DNA of 64,000 bases from Acholeplasma sp. (GCA_012838635.1 DUOW01000018.1:22764-86763); one strand, 5' to 3'. Shown: positions 2,749 to 42,088, counted from the stretch's first letter. Made by a program: numbers and translations. Notes: a model not told the origin generated them from the sequence alone.

Positions 2749-3279
2749 ATGAATATTTGGCATAATATTAATGAAGAAAGAATAAAAGAAGATGATTTTA
2801 TTGCAGTTATCGAAATTACAAAAGGAAGTAAAACTAAATATGAATTAGATAAAGAAACAGGAATGTTAATTCTTGATCGTGTTTTATATACTTCAACACA
2901 CTATCCTGCGAACTATGGATTTATTCCCAGAACATATTGTGATGATGATGATCCATTAGATGTCTTAGTATTAGCATCAGAACCACTAGCGTCAATGTCA
3001 ATGGTTAGATGTTATCCAATTGGTGTTGTTAGAATGTTAGATAATAATGAAATTGATGATAAAATTATTGCGATTCCATTTGAAGATCCTACTTGGAATA
3101 ACTTTAATGAAATTTCCGAATTGTCTCCACATATTGAAAGTGAAATTATGCACTTCTTTAGTGTTTATAAAAGTTTAGAAAAGAAACCTACAGCTGCTAT
3201 TACTTCACATGGTAGGGAAAAAGCTATTCAAACTATTAAAGAAGCAATAGCAGCATATAAGGAGAAGTTTGGAGTATAA
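2749..3279 (+). CDS. ppa: inorganic pyrophosphatase (family I)
   Basis: DDDDPLDVLVL acidic cluster; typical length of 176 aa. Confidence 0.9.
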   Translation: MNIWHNINEERIKEDDFIAVIEITKGSKTKYELDKETGMLILDRVLYTSTHYPANYGFIPRTYCDDDDPLDVLVLASEPLASMSMVRCYPIGVVRMLDNNEIDDKIIAIPFEDPTWNNFNEISELSPHIESEIMHFFSVYKSLEKKPTAAITSHGREKAIQTIKEAIAAYKEKFGV

Positions 3280-4079
3280 TGTTTGGTTTAGACGCTAAAG
3301 TCAGTGCTTTTTTAGGAATTGCTTTAATTTTTTTAGCAACTACTGGAGGATCTGCACTTGTTTATTTAGTTAAAAATAAACTTCCTAAAAAAGTATTTAA
3401 AGGAATTATGGGTTTTGCTTCTGGTGTTATGATGAGTGCTGCTATCTTTTCATTATTGATACCATCGCTTGATCTTTCATTGGAGAAATATGGAGATTTT
3501 AAATTTCCTTATTTTCCTGCTATTATTGGTTTGGTTTTAGGAATAATCTTTTTGATGGTAATTGATAGATTGGTGCCTCACTTACATCAAGATTATAAAC
3601 AAGAAGGTTTACCATCTAATTTGAAACAATCAACGATGCTTTTCTTAGGAGTATCACTACATAATATTCCAGAAGGGTTATCAGTAGGTTTTGCTTTTGG
3701 TGTTGGGATTGCTAGTGGTAATTATGAGTTAGTTACATCTGCTGCAATGCTATCTATAGGAATAGCTATTCAAAATTTCCCTGAAGGTGCTGCTGTTAGT
3801 TTATGTTATAGACAGTCAGGGTATTCAAAAACAAAGTCATTTTTATTAGGGATGTTTTCTGGTTTAGTTGAACCTATTTTTGCCGTTTTGGGAATCTTGT
3901 TTGCGACATTATTTACAAGCTTAATGCCTTGGCTTTTAGCTTTTGCGGCAGGAGCAATGATTTATATTATTATTGAAGAGTTATTGCCTGCAAGTGTTGA
4001 TAAAGAATCTCATTCACATATTGGTGTAATTAGTTTCTTTGTTGGCTTTGTAATTATGTTGGTTATTGAATTGCTTTAA
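3279..4079 (+). CDS. ZIP-family zinc/metal transporter (ZupT-like)
   Basis: HNIPEG and QNFPEG motifs in a multi-TM protein. Confidence 0.85.
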   Translation: MFGLDAKVSAFLGIALIFLATTGGSALVYLVKNKLPKKVFKGIMGFASGVMMSAAIFSLLIPSLDLSLEKYGDFKFPYFPAIIGLVLGIIFLMVIDRLVPHLHQDYKQEGLPSNLKQSTMLFLGVSLHNIPEGLSVGFAFGVGIASGNYELVTSAAMLSIGIAIQNFPEGAAVSLCYRQSGYSKTKSFLLGMFSGLVEPIFAVLGILFATLFTSLMPWLLAFAAGAMIYIIIEELLPASVDKESHSHIGVISFFVGFVIMLVIELL

Positions 4080-4100
4080 AAGTAAAAAAAGAGATAAAAA

Positions 4101-4127
4101 AAGAAGAGCATTATGCTCTTTTTTTAA
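4101..4127 (+). terminator. rho-independent terminator
   Basis: AGAGCA-ttat-TGCTCT followed by T7. Confidence 0.65.
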
Positions 4128-4160
4128 AAAATGTGTTATAATATATCAAAGAGGTGGATT

Positions 4161-4451
4161 ATGAAGTATTGTCCAAAATGTCAAGTAGAAGTAGATTCTA
4201 AAACAGCTAATTGCCCTTACTGTAAAGAACCTTTAATTATTAGGCCAACTCCAGGTAAGCCAAATGAGGCTGCTGAAAATATAAAAGGAATTAATGAGTT
4301 TATTGTCTTTGCATCATTAGTCGTTCCTTTTTTAGGTTTTATTTTATATTTTACTTGGAAAGAAAAGAAAACATATCAAGCTAAGTTTTATTTAGGGATT
4401 GGTATTGTTTCTATAATTTGTTATGTTGTAATGTTTATTATACTTTATTAA
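4161..4451 (+). CDS. zinc-ribbon domain membrane protein (hypothetical)
   Basis: CPKC...CPYC zinc ribbon followed by TM helices. SD GAGGTGG before the ATG at 4161. The ORF track starts at 4131 but that start has no SD. Confidence 0.55.
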   Translation: MKYCPKCQVEVDSKTANCPYCKEPLIIRPTPGKPNEAAENIKGINEFIVFASLVVPFLGFILYFTWKEKKTYQAKFYLGIGIVSIICYVVMFIILY

Positions 4452-4486
4452 TAAAAAAGATATTTCAGTAAAAAGCAAACGTTTTC

Positions 4487-4514
4487 TTGACAATTTTAAA
4501 AAAAGAGTGTATAA
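4487..4514 (+). promoter_or_regulatory. near-consensus sigma-70 promoter (TTGACA, 16 bp spacer, TATAAT)
   Basis: TTGACA at 4487-4492 and TATAAT at 4509-4514. Confidence 0.6.
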
Positions 4515-4520
4515 TGTTTA

Positions 4521-4752
4521 TAGATGAAAGTCTTAATAGTGTTTTATTCTCACCTCCTTTTAATAAGGTTAGATTTGACTTTTTAAACGTTCAAGTTATT
4601 TTCCCTTTTCGATAACTTGGACAAATGCTTTTGGTCAGTAAACGTTTCTTTTAAATCATTGACTAAAAGCTACATTGCTTTAACCAATGGAAGATCTATT
4701 TCAAAAAACAAAACAAAAAAAATGAGCAGTTAAAGAAGGCTCATTTTTTCTT
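4521..4752 (+). ncRNA. candidate small RNA / leaderless micro-ORF transcript (~230 nt) bounded by a consensus promoter and an intrinsic terminator
   Basis: No long ORF on either strand. Internal hairpins CAAGTTAT/ATAACTTG and CATTG/CAATG. Possible leaderless ATG at 4523 encoding the 20-aa peptide MKVLIVFYSHLLLIRLDLTF. CACCTCCTT anti-SD-like motif. Confidence 0.35.
4716..4752. terminator. bidirectional intrinsic terminator (ATGAGC/GCTCAT stem flanked by an A-run and a T-run)
   Basis: Stem 4722-4727/4739-4744. T6 downstream on + and A12 upstream, which is a U-run on the - strand. Serves the + transcript and the convergent mgtE. Confidence 0.6.
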
Positions 4753-4769
4753 TTTATATATGCAATTAT

Positions 4770-6145
4770 TCATATGAAACTTAACAATAAAGTGGCTAAG
4801 CCGTAATAGATTAAAACGGTTATTAAGTCATTAAGTGTAGTAATTAGTGGTCCACTTGCCACTGCAGGGTCTACTTTAATTTTCTCAAAAAATAATGGTA
4901 CGATAATTCCAATTAAATTTGCAATAATTATAGAAATAAACATACTTAAACTAATAATACCAGAAACTTTAGAGCTGCTAGATAAGTAAAAGGTTCATCT
5001 TGAACAATTTCTGTTTTTGTAATCGCGATAAAAGCAAAAACAGAAATAAAACTAATAATACTTACTAGTAAACCTAAGAGCACACCAGTTAAAAGTTCTT
5101 TCCCCAAAATCCTTTTCCATTTTAGTTGTTGGGGGTCATTAAGACCAGTAATTGTCACAGCTAAGGATTGTGTTCCTACGTTACCAGACATACTTAATAA
5201 CATTGATTGGAAAAAGACCATTACAGGAATTGTAATAATTATGTTTTCAAAGCCTGAAATCATAAATGAAACTATAAAAGACAAAAACAATAAAACAATA
5301 AGCCATGGAATTCTTTTCTTGATTGTAGTCCAAATGTTATCTTCAACATCTGCTTCCTCGGTTAAACCGGCAAACTTAGCGTAGTCTTCGTGTACCTCTT
5401 CTTGATAAGCATCTAAAATATTATCACTTTCTAGTACTCCAACAAGGACTTCATTTTCATCTAGTACTGGAATTATATCCAAATCATATTCTACAATCTT
5501 ATAAATTTTATCTTCAATTAAATCATTTACATGTAAGATAGGATAGTTAGTTTTAATAATATCTTCAAAATTACTATCAGCTCTAGCAATGATTAAATCT
5601 TTTAAATTTACAGCACCATATAATGTTCCGTCATCATTTCAAACATAAAGAATGAAGATATTATCATTTTCAGCTGCTTCTAAAACCATTTTTTTCATTG
5701 CACCTTTAATTGTATCGTTTCTGTTAATGGTTATATAGTTTGTAGAGATAATACTACCGATTGTTTCTTCTTCGTATTGAGAAAGAGTGTCGATTTCTTC
5801 GGCGCTTTCATCATCAATTAACTCTAAGATGTTTTCTCTTTCGTCTTCATTTAGTTTTTTCAAAACATCTACAGCATCAACTGTATCCATTAAACTAATA
5901 ATCTCGGCAGTTTTTTCTTCATCTAGTTCATCAAAGTATTCTTTTGGATCTTCTAGGTAAGCAAAAATATCTGACAACTTTTGACTAGGAAGTGATTTGT
6001 ATAATTTTTGTCTTTCCTGGTCAGATAGAATTTGGAATGTAGAAGCGATATCGTAGTCGTGATATTTACTTAACAAACTTTTGATTTTTGTAGAACTATT
6101 TTTTTGAATAATGTGTTTAATTTTTAAAGTAGTAGTTGTGTTCAT
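4770..6145 (-). pseudogene. mgtE: Mg2+ transporter MgtE, disrupted by an in-frame TGA at 5639-5641 and a 1-nt frameshift near 4948-4950
   Basis: Three collinear frames reconstruct a ~456-aa MgtE: N-domain, CBS pair, TM region, and a C-terminus ending ...DPAVASGPLITTLNDLITVLIYYGLATLLL. Confidence 0.7.
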
Positions 6146-6279
6146 ATTTATCTTCTTTCTTTAACATTTTACTACATTTACCTTGATTTTATAAGGAAAA
6201 ACAAAAGAGTGAAATTCTTTACATTTTAATACAAAAACAAAAAGAAATTTGTTATAATATAGATAAGGAGTTGATAAGT

Positions 6280-7296
6280 ATGAAATATAGTTTTTTAAAT
6301 GATTATAACACCTTAGCTCATCCAAAAGTATTCGAATATCTTCAAAAATATATCAATGAAGCTAATGTTGGATATGGTTTAGATGAACATTCAAAAAATG
6401 CTAAAAAGATGATTTTAGATAAAATTGGAAAAGATTACGATGTTCACTTTTTAGTTGGGGGAACTAGCGCTAATAAAATAGTTTTATCGCATTTTCTAAA
6501 ACCTTATGAAGCTGTAATTTGTCCTGAAAGTGCCCATATTAATAGAAGAGAAACAGGGGCTTTAGAAGCAACCGGTCACAAGATTTTAACTGCTAAAAGT
6601 GAAGATGGGAAAATTACTCTAGAAGGTATCAAAGAAGTATTAGCTGAACATACAGATGAACATATGGTTTTACCAAGAATTGTTTCTATTTCGTATACAA
6701 CAGAATATGGTACAGTATATTCGAAAGAAGAATTAAAGGATATTGCTGATTTATGTAAAGCAAATAATCTTTTACTTTATGTAGATGGAGCAAGATTAAC
6801 TTATGGTCTTGCAGCAACTGCCCTTTCTTTAAAAGAATTTGCTAAGATTCCTGACTTTTTCACAATCGGTGGGACGAAGGCTGGAGCAATGTTGGGAGAA
6901 GCTGTCGTACTTAAAAAAAGCAAAGCAGCAGAAAACTTCAGATTTTCACTAAAACAAAATGGTGGAATGCTAGCAAAGGGATTTTTAATTGGTATTCAAT
7001 TTGAAGCTTTACTTACCGATAATTTACTTCTAAAAATTTGTGAAGATGCTAATAAGAAAGCAGTATATTTAAAAGAGAAATTAAAGGAACTAAATATAGA
7101 GTTTTTATTTGACTCTAATACTAATTTACAGTTTCCTATTTTAAGTAACAAAGCAGTAAAAGCTTTAAAAGAAAAATATTTATTCTCAGTTTGGGAGCCA
7201 AGAAAGAATGATGCAGTTATTAGACTAGTAACTACATATGATACTGATATTAAGATGATAGATCAATTTGTAGGAGATCTAAGAAAAGAGTTATAG
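6280..7296 (+). CDS. low-specificity threonine aldolase / beta-eliminating lyase family, PLP-dependent
   Basis: GGTSAN and TIGGTKAGA motifs. SD AAGGAG 9 nt before the ATG at 6280. Confidence 0.75.
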   Translation: MKYSFLNDYNTLAHPKVFEYLQKYINEANVGYGLDEHSKNAKKMILDKIGKDYDVHFLVGGTSANKIVLSHFLKPYEAVICPESAHINRRETGALEATGHKILTAKSEDGKITLEGIKEVLAEHTDEHMVLPRIVSISYTTEYGTVYSKEELKDIADLCKANNLLLYVDGARLTYGLAATALSLKEFAKIPDFFTIGGTKAGAMLGEAVVLKKSKAAENFRFSLKQNGGMLAKGFLIGIQFEALLTDNLLLKICEDANKKAVYLKEKLKELNIEFLFDSNTNLQFPILSNKAVKALKEKYLFSVWEPRKNDAVIRLVTTYDTDIKMIDQFVGDLRKEL

Positions 7297-9051: not shown

Positions 9052-9091
9052 TTCATATGTATTGACATTCATATGAAAAAGGAATATAATA
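9052..9091 (+). promoter_or_regulatory. promoter (TTGACA, 17 bp spacer, TATAAT) with palindromic TTCATATGAA operator-like sites
   Basis: Perfect 10-bp palindrome at 9068-9077 between the -35 and -10. A half-copy TTCATATG lies at 9052-9059. Confidence 0.5.
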
Positions 9092-9108: not shown

Positions 9109-9435
9109 ATGGACAAAGATAAAATAAAAAAACAAATTATAACTCAAGAAGAACAAGATGAAATAACTTTGTTGTTTAAGACGATGGGAGATTCGACACG
9201 TTTTACAATTATTGTAGCTTTATTTGAAGCAGAACTGTCAGTAACAGAACTTACTAAAGTCACAGGAATGAATCAATCGGCTGTTAGTCATCAATTGCGT
9301 GTTTTAAAAGAGCAAGATATAGTTCGTTTTAAAAAACAAGGGAAGAAAAGGATTTATTATTTAGCTGATCATCATATTAAAACATTGTATGAATTAGCTT
9401 TAGCACATATAAGAGAGGAAAAACATGAGAGTTAA
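9109..9435 (+). CDS. ArsR/SmtB-family metalloregulator, Cys-less CzrA-like (alpha5 His/Asp site)
   Basis: wHTH ...SVTELTKVTGMNQSAVSHQLRVLKE... with a C-terminal DHH...H...H cluster. SD before the ATG at 9109. The ORF track starts at 9073. Confidence 0.75.
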   Translation: MDKDKIKKQIITQEEQDEITLLFKTMGDSTRFTIIVALFEAELSVTELTKVTGMNQSAVSHQLRVLKEQDIVRFKKQGKKRIYYLADHHIKTLYELALAHIREEKHES

Positions 9436-13691: not shown

Positions 13692-14684
13692 ATGGCTTTT
13701 AGTTTAGGAAAGAATTTAAGAATTACTATATTTGGGGAAGCTCATAGTGAAAAAATGGGTGTTGTAATTGAAGGACTACCTGTAGGCAAAACTATTAATA
13801 TAGAAACAATCAAAGCAAATTTAGCTTTAAGAAGAAGTAAAACTTGTTTTGAAACGAAAAGAGTTGAAGATGATGAGTTTGAGATTGTTTCAGGCTACTT
13901 CAATAATAGGACAACTGGTGGGCCAGTTGCAATACTTGTTTCAAATAAAAGGCAAAAATCTTCTGATTATGATCCCAACACGATTAGACCATCTCATGCT
14001 GATTATGTTTCAAAAGTAAAATATGATGGTTTCAATGATTATCGTGGTGGTGGAATCTTTTCAGGAAGACTAACTGTGTTATTAGTTATTGCTGGTTCTA
14101 TTTGTTTAGATTTACTTCAAGAAAAAGAGATTACAATTGAAACTAATGTTACATCTATTGGTGGTGAAAGTAAGGAATACGAAACTTTGCTGGAAGAGAC
14201 AGTTAAAGAAAAAGATAGTTTAGGCGGAATTATTCAAGTTACAGTTAATAATTTACCAGTTGGTTTAGGGGAACCTTATTTTGATAAAGTGGATGCTTTA
14301 CTTGCAAGAGCACTTTTTAGTGTTCCTAGTGTTAAAGGAGTTTCTTTTGGTTTGGGATTTGCAATTACTAAACTTAAAGGATCTGAAGCTAATGATGAAT
14401 TTTATTATAATGAAGGTAGAGTGAAAACAAAAACAAATCATTCTGGTGGTATTAATGGTGGGATTACTAATGGAATGCCTTTAGTTATTAATGTTGCTTT
14501 AAGGCCAACGCCATCAATTGGTAAAGTCCAAGATAGTATTTCTTTAGATAAAAAAGAAAATGTAAAGTTAGAATTACAAGGGCGATATGATACAACTCAT
14601 ATTTTTAGGACACAAATAGTATTAAAAGCAGTTGTTGCTTTAGTCCTTTATGATTTATTTAGAGAAAATAAAAAAACTTGGTAA
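13692..14684 (+). CDS. aroC: chorismate synthase
   Basis: FGEAHSEKMGVVIEGLP N-terminus; conserved GGRSSARET-like core. Confidence 0.8.
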   Translation: MAFSLGKNLRITIFGEAHSEKMGVVIEGLPVGKTINIETIKANLALRRSKTCFETKRVEDDEFEIVSGYFNNRTTGGPVAILVSNKRQKSSDYDPNTIRPSHADYVSKVKYDGFNDYRGGGIFSGRLTVLLVIAGSICLDLLQEKEITIETNVTSIGGESKEYETLLEETVKEKDSLGGIIQVTVNNLPVGLGEPYFDKVDALLARALFSVPSVKGVSFGLGFAITKLKGSEANDEFYYNEGRVKTKTNHSGGINGGITNGMPLVINVALRPTPSIGKVQDSISLDKKENVKLELQGRYDTTHIFRTQIVLKAVVALVLYDLFRENKKTW

Positions 14685-34786: not shown

Positions 34787-35920
34787 ATGAAACTATTTAA
34801 CTTTGAAGACGGCTATGTTGGGGAAAATAAAGGTCTTTTAGATTTCTTTATTAAAACTTTAAATGGCATGGCTTATGGCCTTTTTGCTACACTACTTGTA
34901 GGGACAATTTTAACTACTTTTGCTACATACGTTCCTTTACCAGAAGAAGTAAAGACAATTATTTTAACTGTAGCTTCGGTTATTAAAGGGTTAATGGGAC
35001 TTGGTATCGGTATTGGCGTCAGTATGAGTTTAAAACTTAGTGGTCTAAAGCTAATTGTTGCTTCAATTGCTGGTGGGATTGCTGTTTTATTTCCTCAAGC
35101 TTATACTCCAAGTACAGCTAGTTGGTGGACAGATTTTTCAGGAACTTCTAGTGATCCTTTAGTAATTTATGTTGTAGTTATTGGAACAATTTTTGTTATG
35201 AATACAGTTCTTACAAAAAAGACACCAGTAGATATTATTATCGTTCCTATTCTTGGAGTATTAACTGCTGCGTGTTTTAGTTTAATTGTAACTAAACCAA
35301 TTATTACTTTGATCTCTTATATTGGCAAATTCATTATTCTTGCAACTGATGCAACACCCTTTATTATGGGATTAGTTATTTCGGTTGTTATGGGGATGGC
35401 TCTAACAGCACCAATTTCTTCAGCTGCCATTGCTATTTCTATTCATTTAGGAACTAATGCTATTAATGCTGGATTTAGTGAAGCTGATGCTTATATTTTA
35501 GGAATTGCAGGTGGTGCAGCTTTAGTTGGATGCTGTAGCAATATGCTTGGGTTTGCAGTTATGAGTAGAAAAGATAATAATATTGGAACAATTATCTCAG
35601 TTGCTATTGGTACAAGTATGCTTCAATTTAAAAACATTTTAAAAAAGCCAATCATTTGGCTTCCACCGATTATTGTTAGTGCGATTTTAGGACCGCTATC
35701 GACTATGGTATTTAAAATGACAACAACATCAATTGGTGCGGGAATGGGAACTTCTGGTTTAGTTGGTCAGATTGAAACGATAACTTCAATGGGAGTTAAT
35801 GCTAGAAGCATTTTATCAATTTTAATCTTACAAATTATCTTGCCAATTGTTTTAGTGTGGATTATTGATATAATCTTTAGAAAATATAACCTTATTAAAA
35901 AAGGTGATTTAAAAATTTAA
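34787..35920 (+). CDS. polytopic membrane permease (family uncertain, PTS-EIIC/KdgT-like)
   Basis: About 10 TM segments. Confidence 0.45.
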   Translation: MKLFNFEDGYVGENKGLLDFFIKTLNGMAYGLFATLLVGTILTTFATYVPLPEEVKTIILTVASVIKGLMGLGIGIGVSMSLKLSGLKLIVASIAGGIAVLFPQAYTPSTASWWTDFSGTSSDPLVIYVVVIGTIFVMNTVLTKKTPVDIIIVPILGVLTAACFSLIVTKPIITLISYIGKFIILATDATPFIMGLVISVVMGMALTAPISSAAIAISIHLGTNAINAGFSEADAYILGIAGGAALVGCCSNMLGFAVMSRKDNNIGTIISVAIGTSMLQFKNILKKPIIWLPPIIVSAILGPLSTMVFKMTTTSIGAGMGTSGLVGQIETITSMGVNARSILSILILQIILPIVLVWIIDIIFRKYNLIKKGDLKI

Positions 35921-35949
35921 TATTAAATAATTTTGGTTTTTGATGCAAA

Positions 35950-36095
35950 ATTAAAAGGGAATCTAGTTAGAATCTAGAACAGCCCCCGCTACTGTAGAAG
36001 TGGAGTACTTTATTACTTATGATCACTTAAAGGAAACTTTTGGGAAGATCTATAAAGTATGATGATGCTTTAAGTCAGGAGACCTGCCGAGATTA
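35950..36095 (+). ncRNA. cobalamin (B12) riboswitch aptamer
   Basis: GGGAA at 35957. CAGCCCCCGCTACTGT at 35980-35995. B12 box AAGTCAGGAGACCTGCC at 36072-36088. Confidence 0.85.
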
Positions 36096-36140
36096 TAAAT
36101 AAGAATTTCGGAGGGAAATTTGTTATTAGTTATAAAAACA

Positions 36141-42057: not shown

Positions 42058-42088
42058 TGGATGTAAACGTTTTATGTGATGAAAATGC

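Follow-up and report, generated by a model that had tools for sequence, protein, structure and literature searches.

UCCC motifs carried in loops or single strands pair with ribosome-binding sites (RBSs) in LhrC of Listeria and in RNAIII and the Rsa RNAs of S. aureus. Other small RNAs (sRNAs), such as DapZ and MicL of enterobacteria, lie in or overlap a 3' UTR and have a promoter of their own. In the type I toxin mRNAs (Ibs, Fst and TisB classes) a short hydrophobic ORF at the 5' end is combined with a highly structured mRNA, in which a 5'-3' closing stem lies over the start. RoxS/RsaE of the Bacillales is an independent sRNA whose C-rich unpaired motifs, in or beside hairpin loops, are complementary to Shine-Dalgarno (SD) sequences (PMC5419742; PMC6158497): in RoxS there are four such regions, and by binding SD sequences it prevents translation from starting (PMC5419742).

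Here we describe a candidate sRNA gene – new, restricted to one clade, and familiar in kind – in a 64,000-nt stretch of Acholeplasma sp. DNA (hereafter "the window"; G+C 28.8%) belonging to an Acholeplasmataceae MAG from anaerobic digesters. Like RoxS/RsaE, the predicted RNA has its own promoter and an intrinsic terminator, and it resembles them (in mechanism only) in carrying the SD-complementary motifs CACCUCCUUUU and, in a hairpin loop, UUCCCUUUUC. Unlike RoxS/RsaE, which measure ~100-115 nt and use CCCC, it is ~231 nt long with another hairpin layout, and its motifs are CCUCC and UCCC in a U-rich context. The display of UCCC motifs in hairpin loops or single-stranded stretches is shared with LhrC, RNAIII and the Rsa RNAs. 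As in DapZ and MicL, the terminator is common to an upstream mRNA that has none of its own, but here the promoter lies past the stop codon and not inside the coding sequence, and there is no homology. The hydrophobic 5' ORF, the structured RNA and the predicted closing stem over the AUG recall type I toxin mRNAs; the unconserved ORF end, the failure to find an antisense partner, the lack of synonymous variation and the lack of a family match set it apart from them.

No known RNA family accounts for the locus, as the original prediction had judged: cmscan against Rfam 15 gave only noise within 4487-4752, with no match at gathering score and none credible at E <= 10 (isolated 261 nt, 4500-4760). 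The RsaE/RoxS covariance model (RF01820) did not match at E <= 10 over 4500-4760. The only family-specific hint was LhrC (RF00616), and membership was rejected: over 4563-4651 the score was 15.2 bits against a gathering threshold of 110 (E = 8.1), which is noise. The window's one Rfam match at gathering score lies elsewhere, a cobalamin riboswitch (35917-36105, plus strand, 110.9 bits) upstream of a 548-aa ORF and transporter-like genes. A literature search on Acholeplasma small RNAs returned nothing relevant.

Promoter, terminator and conservation of the unit

Related contigs were found among Acholeplasmataceae MAGs and in biogas and anaerobic-digester metagenomes. Another 15 loci, drawn from other samples, match the window at 99% identity or more and are of little informative value. 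The informative comparison is with a sister species (contigs L016-L021), which has the same gene order and an intact 458-aa MgtE and supplies the 79% cluster of the 96-aa protein described below; more of its sublineages came from a genome scan (L022) and a metagenome pattern scan (L025, L027, L028, L029 and L031). Coordinates of all features are given in Table 1.

Table 1. Features of the locus in window coordinates; identities are from the alignment of the window species with the sister species
Feature	Position	Strand	Remarks
Gene for 96-aa zinc-ribbon and transmembrane protein	4161..4451	+	weak DZR zinc-ribbon match
DNA past the stop codon of the 96-aa gene	4452-4466	+	47% identity
Conserved block TAAAAAGCAAACGTTTTC before the -35	4467..4486	+	conserved through the -35 (4467-4493)
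Predicted sigma-70-type promoter	4487..4515	+	TTGACA 4487-4492, 17-nt spacer, TATAAT 4510-4515; 12/12 match
Promoter spacer	between hexamers	+	always 17 nt; 53% identity
-10 hexamer	4510-4515	+	identical
Discriminator	4516-4520	+	40% identity
T4521 to terminator T-run	4521-~4752	+	94.7% identity over 4522-4752, substitutions only
Predicted sRNA transcript, ~231 nt	4522..4752	+	putative +1 to terminator U-run; set by conservation limits
Invariant 5' domain	4522..4579	+	0 substitutions between species in 58 nt
Hydrophobic 20-aa micro-ORF MKVLIVFYSHLLLIRLDLTF	4524..4586	+	ATG 2 nt past the putative +1
Hairpin 1 (weak)	4548-4555 / 4566-4573	+	z = -0.8; holds CACCUCCUUUU
Anti-SD-like CACCUCCUUUU	4551-4561	+	in invariant 5' domain; partly accessible in the fold
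Hairpin 2, 12-bp stem	4589..4622	+	-10.5 kcal/mol, z = -4.3; stem invariant
C/U-rich loop of hairpin 2, UUCCCUUUUC	4601-4610	+	unpaired probability ~0.99
Hairpin 3, 13-bp stem, 18-nt loop AAACGUUUCUUUUAAAUC	4627..4670	+	-14.4 kcal/mol, z = -5.5
Hairpin 4, CAUUG/CAAUG, 7-nt loop CUUUAAC	4673..4689	+	in MFE and centroid folds of both species
Bidirectional intrinsic terminator (A-run, stem, T-run)	4717..4755	both	stem 4717-4727 / 4739-4749
DNA beyond the terminator	4753-4769	+	67% identity
Convergent mgtE, pseudogene in the window species	4770..6145	-	by comparison with the sister gene; shares the terminator with the sRNA

The promoter is the only one inside 3000-7000 to match the consensus at all 12 hexamer positions, and one of two in the 64-kb window (at 4487 and 9062), where first-order Markov simulations lead to an expectation of 0.16. 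It was rightly placed among the window's strongest by the original prediction, whose hexamers stand; the 16-bp spacer given there is off by one. Both hexamers and the 17-nt spacing are kept in all lineages, and promoter activity is predicted. The other perfect match (9062-9090, plus strand) lies just before an ArsR/HTH_5-type regulator gene (~9109-9435) and a P-type ATPase gene.

The block TAAAAAGCAAACGTTTTC in front of the -35 is identical in the window, L016, L022, L025, L027, L028 and L029. Within it, an imperfect palindrome (AGCAAACGTTTTCT, 4474-4487) abuts the -35 and differs from the cre consensus by one mismatch. The block may be an operator, of LacI/cre/PUR-box type, or else an UP-like element. 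Since cre-like matches of the same quality are no commoner in the A+T-rich window than in shuffles, the operator reading is taken as a lead only, and a cre/LacI-type operator as an established site was dropped. A similar sequence, TGTAAACGTTTTAT, occurs at 42062-42075 (plus strand). It lies 13 nt before an 11/12 promoter (42089) that in turn precedes an ABC-transporter substrate-binding gene; the same regulator could bind both sites, a suggestion that is statistically unsupported.

At the other end, the terminator consists of an 11-bp stem with two inner pairs and an 11-nt loop, followed by T6-C-T5, and is fully conserved between the two species. On the plus strand it folds at -10.7 kcal/mol (z = -3.4); the minus-strand version, followed by U8, reaches -12.6 kcal/mol. 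Given this minus-strand fold and T-run, and the position of the mgtE stop codon (TGA, 4770-4772), the hairpin (4717-4749) should be able to terminate transcription from both directions, in agreement with the proposal that one T6 hairpin ends both the unit and the convergent mgtE. The automatic terminator scan, which limits loops to 8 nt, missed it because its loop is longer.

Between species, conservation restarts at T4521 (TAGATG...) and ends at ~4752, and A4522, 7 nt past the -10, is the putative +1. The transcript differs at 12 of 228 aligned sites (5.3%), while five flanking genes diverge by 37.5% at four-fold sites and by 15% over all coding sites (Fisher P = 4e-22 and P = 7e-6, respectively): it has evolved ~7 times more slowly than four-fold sites and is ~3 times more conserved than the average coding site. 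The invariance of the first 58 nt has a probability of ~1e-12 at the four-fold rate and of 7e-5 at the average coding rate. Among sister sublineages the flanks differ by 3-22% and the transcript by 0-2 changes in 231 nt. Since the hexamers and the transcript are kept and the spacer, the discriminator and the flanks have diverged, the footprint fits a promoter followed by a transcript with its +1 near A4522, and not uniformly young DNA. As judged from these alignments, strong purifying selection is shown to act on promoter, transcript and terminator in both of the species-level lineages known for the clade, of which there are only two. The conservation that the original prediction had suggested looking for is thus present, and exceeds that of the flanking genes; together with slow evolution and the lack of an RNA family match, the two-species footprint supports its central claim, a separate promoter-to-terminator unit for a structured non-coding RNA. 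A search for evidence of discrete expression by way of the ORFs inside the unit returned genomic contigs only.

Neighboring genes and distribution of the element

The 96-aa protein encoded upstream is named by NCBI as a hypothetical protein and falls into only two clusters (100% and 79% identity) among 5.8 billion proteins. Its gene occurs in the same clade as the sRNA only, and always adjoins it. A bidirectional-looking terminator behind the ZIP transporter gene (4104-4120) and the -10 element TGTTATAAT, with a TGn extension (4131-4141), precede it, from which we take the 96-aa gene to be a transcription unit of its own. No terminator for it was found in 4425-4521, where no structure is stable (z = +1.6). 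The sRNA sequence is therefore probably also the 3' UTR of the 96-aa gene, reached by read-through to the shared terminator. The description of the unit as "orphan" accordingly does not hold in full.

This raises an alternative: that the structured region is a cis-acting 3' UTR of the 96-aa gene (serving stability, localisation or decay), with the internal promoter secondary. The missing terminator favors it, as does the confinement of gene and RNA to one clade, in which they stay adjacent even in L029. A perfect and conserved promoter with its upstream block nevertheless stands between the stop codon and the structured region, conservation restarts exactly at the promoter's +1, and the 36 nt from the stop codon to the promoter block are poorly kept (47%). 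We regard the alternative as unlikely in this exclusive form; a cis role as 3' UTR and a role as sRNA are compatible, and not mutually exclusive.

The convergent mgtE, a magnesium-transporter gene, carries in the window species two lesions relative to the intact 458-aa sister gene, both present in all assemblies of the species: a nonsense change (TTA to TGA) at 5639-5641, and a 1-nt deletion near 4975 that leaves the last transmembrane helix in a separate 57-aa ORF (4770-4943). Reading the TGA as Trp under code 4 was rejected: the real genes of the window lack in-frame TGA and use TGG, so that code 11 applies, and the sister codon is TTA. Gene callers set to code 4 give a spurious 399-aa mgtE product.

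As far as the data reach, the searches for relatives confine the element, along with the 96-aa gene, to one small Acholeplasmataceae clade. A search of genome contigs with the sister MgtE led to the same clade only. The identity of MgtE homologues falls from 84% directly to 50%, and the three loci at ~50% (L034-L037) either lack synteny or leave too little space for the RNA. A metagenome scan with a 20-mer yielded five sister-clade loci and four chance RBS matches read on the opposite strand; two viral scans gave no match, and nhmmer detected no paralogue in the window or the fetched loci.

Within the clade, divergence along the locus is mosaic. Between L022 and L016, for instance, there is 1 difference in the 291 sites of the 96-aa gene, none in the 231 of the sRNA, and 163 in the 1377 of mgtE; the pattern in L022, L025 and L027 relative to L016 places recombination breakpoints at or near the shared terminator. 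In L029 (Ga0255346_1006773, 1464-2100) the body of the sRNA is unchanged, and mid-way through the terminator loop the sequence switches to an unrelated island with three unknown ORFs and a 415-aa gene resembling an N6-adenine methyltransferase; ~65 nt further on comes another hairpin, of 10 bp and with U7. Either a recombination or insertion event took place at the sRNA's 3' end, or the contig is an assembly chimera. The 96-aa gene is still beside the sRNA in L029, although the DNA downstream has been replaced.

Folding and coding potential

On the plus strand, 4522-4752 folds at -50.3 kcal/mol (z = -3.5), a value equalled by none of 200 shuffles, while the minus strand of the unit gives z = -0.8; the folding check proposed at the outset thus supports a structured RNA. 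Hairpins 2 and 3 and the terminator are each individually significant. Hairpin 3, the strongest internal hairpin, is absent from the original prediction. That prediction had the CAAGTTAT/ATAACTTG hairpin, which exists but at 4592-4599 / 4612-4619, ~9 nt from where it had been put; the CATTG/CAATG hairpin, found at 4673-4677 / 4685-4689; and the anti-SD-like motif CACCTCCTT, present at 4551-4559. The loop of hairpin 3, which holds UCUUUUAA, has an unpaired probability of ~0.99. The folds also predict a long-range closing stem that pairs nt 4-13 (the AUG included) with nt 170-182.

Changes between the species largely respect these stems. In hairpin 2 of the sister species the closing pair U-G has become U-A and the loop UCCCU has become UCCCC; hairpin 3 has a single compensatory replacement of C-G by U-A and a G-U pair turned A-U, and has lost one terminal pair; hairpin 4 is invariant, and so offers no covariation evidence; and one pair of the closing stem is broken. 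Over the 63 pairs of the consensus structure 98.9% of cells are paired, with one compensatory, four compatible one-sided and two disruptive changes. The covariation score was reached by 27 of 500 shuffles and is statistically weak, as only two divergent sequence types are available. Of the three variants that the near-identical loci show inside the unit, two fall in stems and preserve pairing; the within-species SNPs A4552G (hairpin 1, A-U to G-U) and A4743G (terminator, U-A to U-G) each keep their pair. The G-U pairs (a G-U to A-U change is sensible only on the plus strand), together with the asymmetry in folding energy, point to the plus strand.

Under code 11 there is no long ORF on either strand between 4452 and 4769, as originally claimed, and no ORF of the unit other than the micro-ORF is common to both species. 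The micro-ORF had been put forward as a possible leaderless product: its ATG at 4524 and its 20-aa peptide MKVLIVFYSHLLLIRLDLTF are indeed present. Its 20 shared codons are identical in all lineages, with no synonymous change, and in the sister species a 1-nt deletion shifts the stop so that 20 aa become 37. Both observations indicate that the constraint is on nucleotides and not on the peptide, which is unlikely to be the product; the micro-ORF has no SD sequence and no Pfam match.

The unit could still be a leaderless mRNA for a small hydrophobic peptide, for instance a type I toxin, its start locked in a 5'-3' stem and its nucleotide conservation due to mRNA structure. An ATG 2 nt past the putative +1, the identity of the first 20 codons across lineages, the hydrophobicity of MKVLIVFYSHLLLIRLDLTF and the predicted stem between nt 4-13 and nt 170-182, similar to those of several type I toxin mRNAs, all speak for such an mRNA; indeed, the pairing of the invariant 5' end with nt 170-182 fits a translationally locked mRNA better than a seed region. 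Against it stand the unconserved stop codon, the complete lack of synonymous substitutions where about a third of third positions have changed in the neighboring genes, the broken pair in the closing stem of the sister species, and the want of an SD sequence or Pfam family. Neither a conserved antisense promoter nor a partner RNA was seen: within 4521-4770 no minus-strand promoter-like site is conserved, and those present are weak and lie in unconserved sequence. On this evidence we consider a toxin-like mRNA quite improbable.

Proposed function

The reading we favor, and on balance believe, is that the locus is the gene for a ~231-nt structured sRNA on the plus strand, with its own sigma-70 promoter and a bidirectional terminator, which acts in trans through C/U-rich motifs that block SD regions; it is probably a lineage-specific regulatory RNA of an ordinary kind, directed at ribosome-binding sites. 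The RNA would be transcribed from the consensus promoter, starting near 4522, and would end at the Rho-independent terminator that it has in common with mgtE. As a riboregulator acting in trans it would offer single-stranded pyrimidine-rich motifs: the 5' domain would contribute CACCUCCUUUU, and the loops of hairpins 2 and 3 UUUCCCY and UCUUUUAA, respectively. All three are complementary to the AAAAGGAGG ribosome-binding sites of this organism; a target mRNA paired in this way would have its SD region covered and its translation blocked at initiation, which is how C-rich regions of RoxS/RsaE, LhrC and RNAIII work in Firmicutes. Transcription may be controlled by a DNA-binding regulator at the conserved palindrome beside the -35, and read-through from the upstream gene may yield the RNA as a 3' UTR too.

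The C runs, conspicuous at 29% G+C, lie where the RNA is most conserved and most accessible. When the 64 translation-initiation regions of the window were examined with RNAduplex, the 5' segment paired at a mean of -17.6 kcal/mol, compared to -14.3 kcal/mol for shuffles; the pairing argument is a generic one, since any CCUCC pairs with any SD sequence. No specific target stood out among the 64 regions, the results being at chance level, and the longest exact complementarity across the 64-kb window (14 nt) is also what chance gives (12-15 nt in shuffles). The RBS of the gene at 13692-14684 was rejected as a target because its 13-nt match is not significant. That the CCUCC motif is partly within a weak stem counts against the sRNA reading.

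The lack of an mRNA target in the window leaves room for a protein-binding RNA, in which four loops with a repeated YCUUUUAA-like motif titrate an RNA-binding protein as CsrB/RsmZ do. CUUUUAA does occur in the loops of both hairpin 1 and hairpin 3, with CUUUUC in hairpin 2 and CUUUAA in hairpin 4, and the loops are conserved as much as the stems. Words of the CTTTT type are nevertheless common at 29% GC, so the repeat may be due to chance; no candidate partner protein is known, and the loops are without GGA-type CsrA motifs. Titration of this kind seems to us distinctly doubtful. A related idea is equally speculative, and we give it little credence: the RNA might mimic the 3' tail of 16S rRNA or serve as a multi-loop decoy, such that CACCUCCUUUU and the YCUUUUAA loops compete globally for AAAAGGAGG sites or titrate a pyrimidine-tract-binding protein. 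Were this true, the RNA would be a global brake on translation in a wall-less bacterium with a small genome, placed under a sugar- or nucleotide-responsive repressor at the AGCAAACGTTTTCT box.

A still less probable alternative is a riboswitch-like or attenuator leader, from which conditional read-through would produce an RNA antisense to the convergent mgtE. The layout – promoter, ~200 nt of structured RNA, terminator, antisense strand of a transporter gene – would suit this, and Rfam scans found no M-box before mgtE; but there is no match to an Rfam aptamer, no convincing antiterminator alternative was seen, and the terminator is strong and bidirectional. In addition, conservation of the RNA is just as high where mgtE has become a pseudogene and in L029, where no mgtE lies downstream. 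The intactness of the RNA in both situations suggests that it is independent of mgtE, with the caveats that the pseudogene is evolutionarily recent and that L029 is a single metagenome contig. Scarcely credible, finally, is the absence of any function (a chance promoter and hairpins in a spacer kept by recent ancestry or recombination), which would suit an element found in one clade and the mosaic divergence that marks recent recombination around it, but not a region some sevenfold more conserved than four-fold sites, and threefold more than the average coding site, with unconserved stretches directly on both sides and inside its promoter spacer.

If the candidate is an SD-blocking sRNA, general principles would be unchanged, the interest lying mainly in its clean limits and its unexplored lineage. 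The locus also marks a region that gene callers, once switched to code 4, mis-annotate as 33-aa or 399-aa proteins. Next to nothing is known of riboregulation in the Acholeplasmataceae, and these organisms are known from metagenomes only; the candidate is sharply delimited, with a defined promoter, +1, terminator and set of candidate seed motifs. It would stand as a new sRNA family, fit for inclusion in Rfam, and would extend the blocking of SD sequences by C-rich loops from the Bacillales to the Acholeplasma branch.
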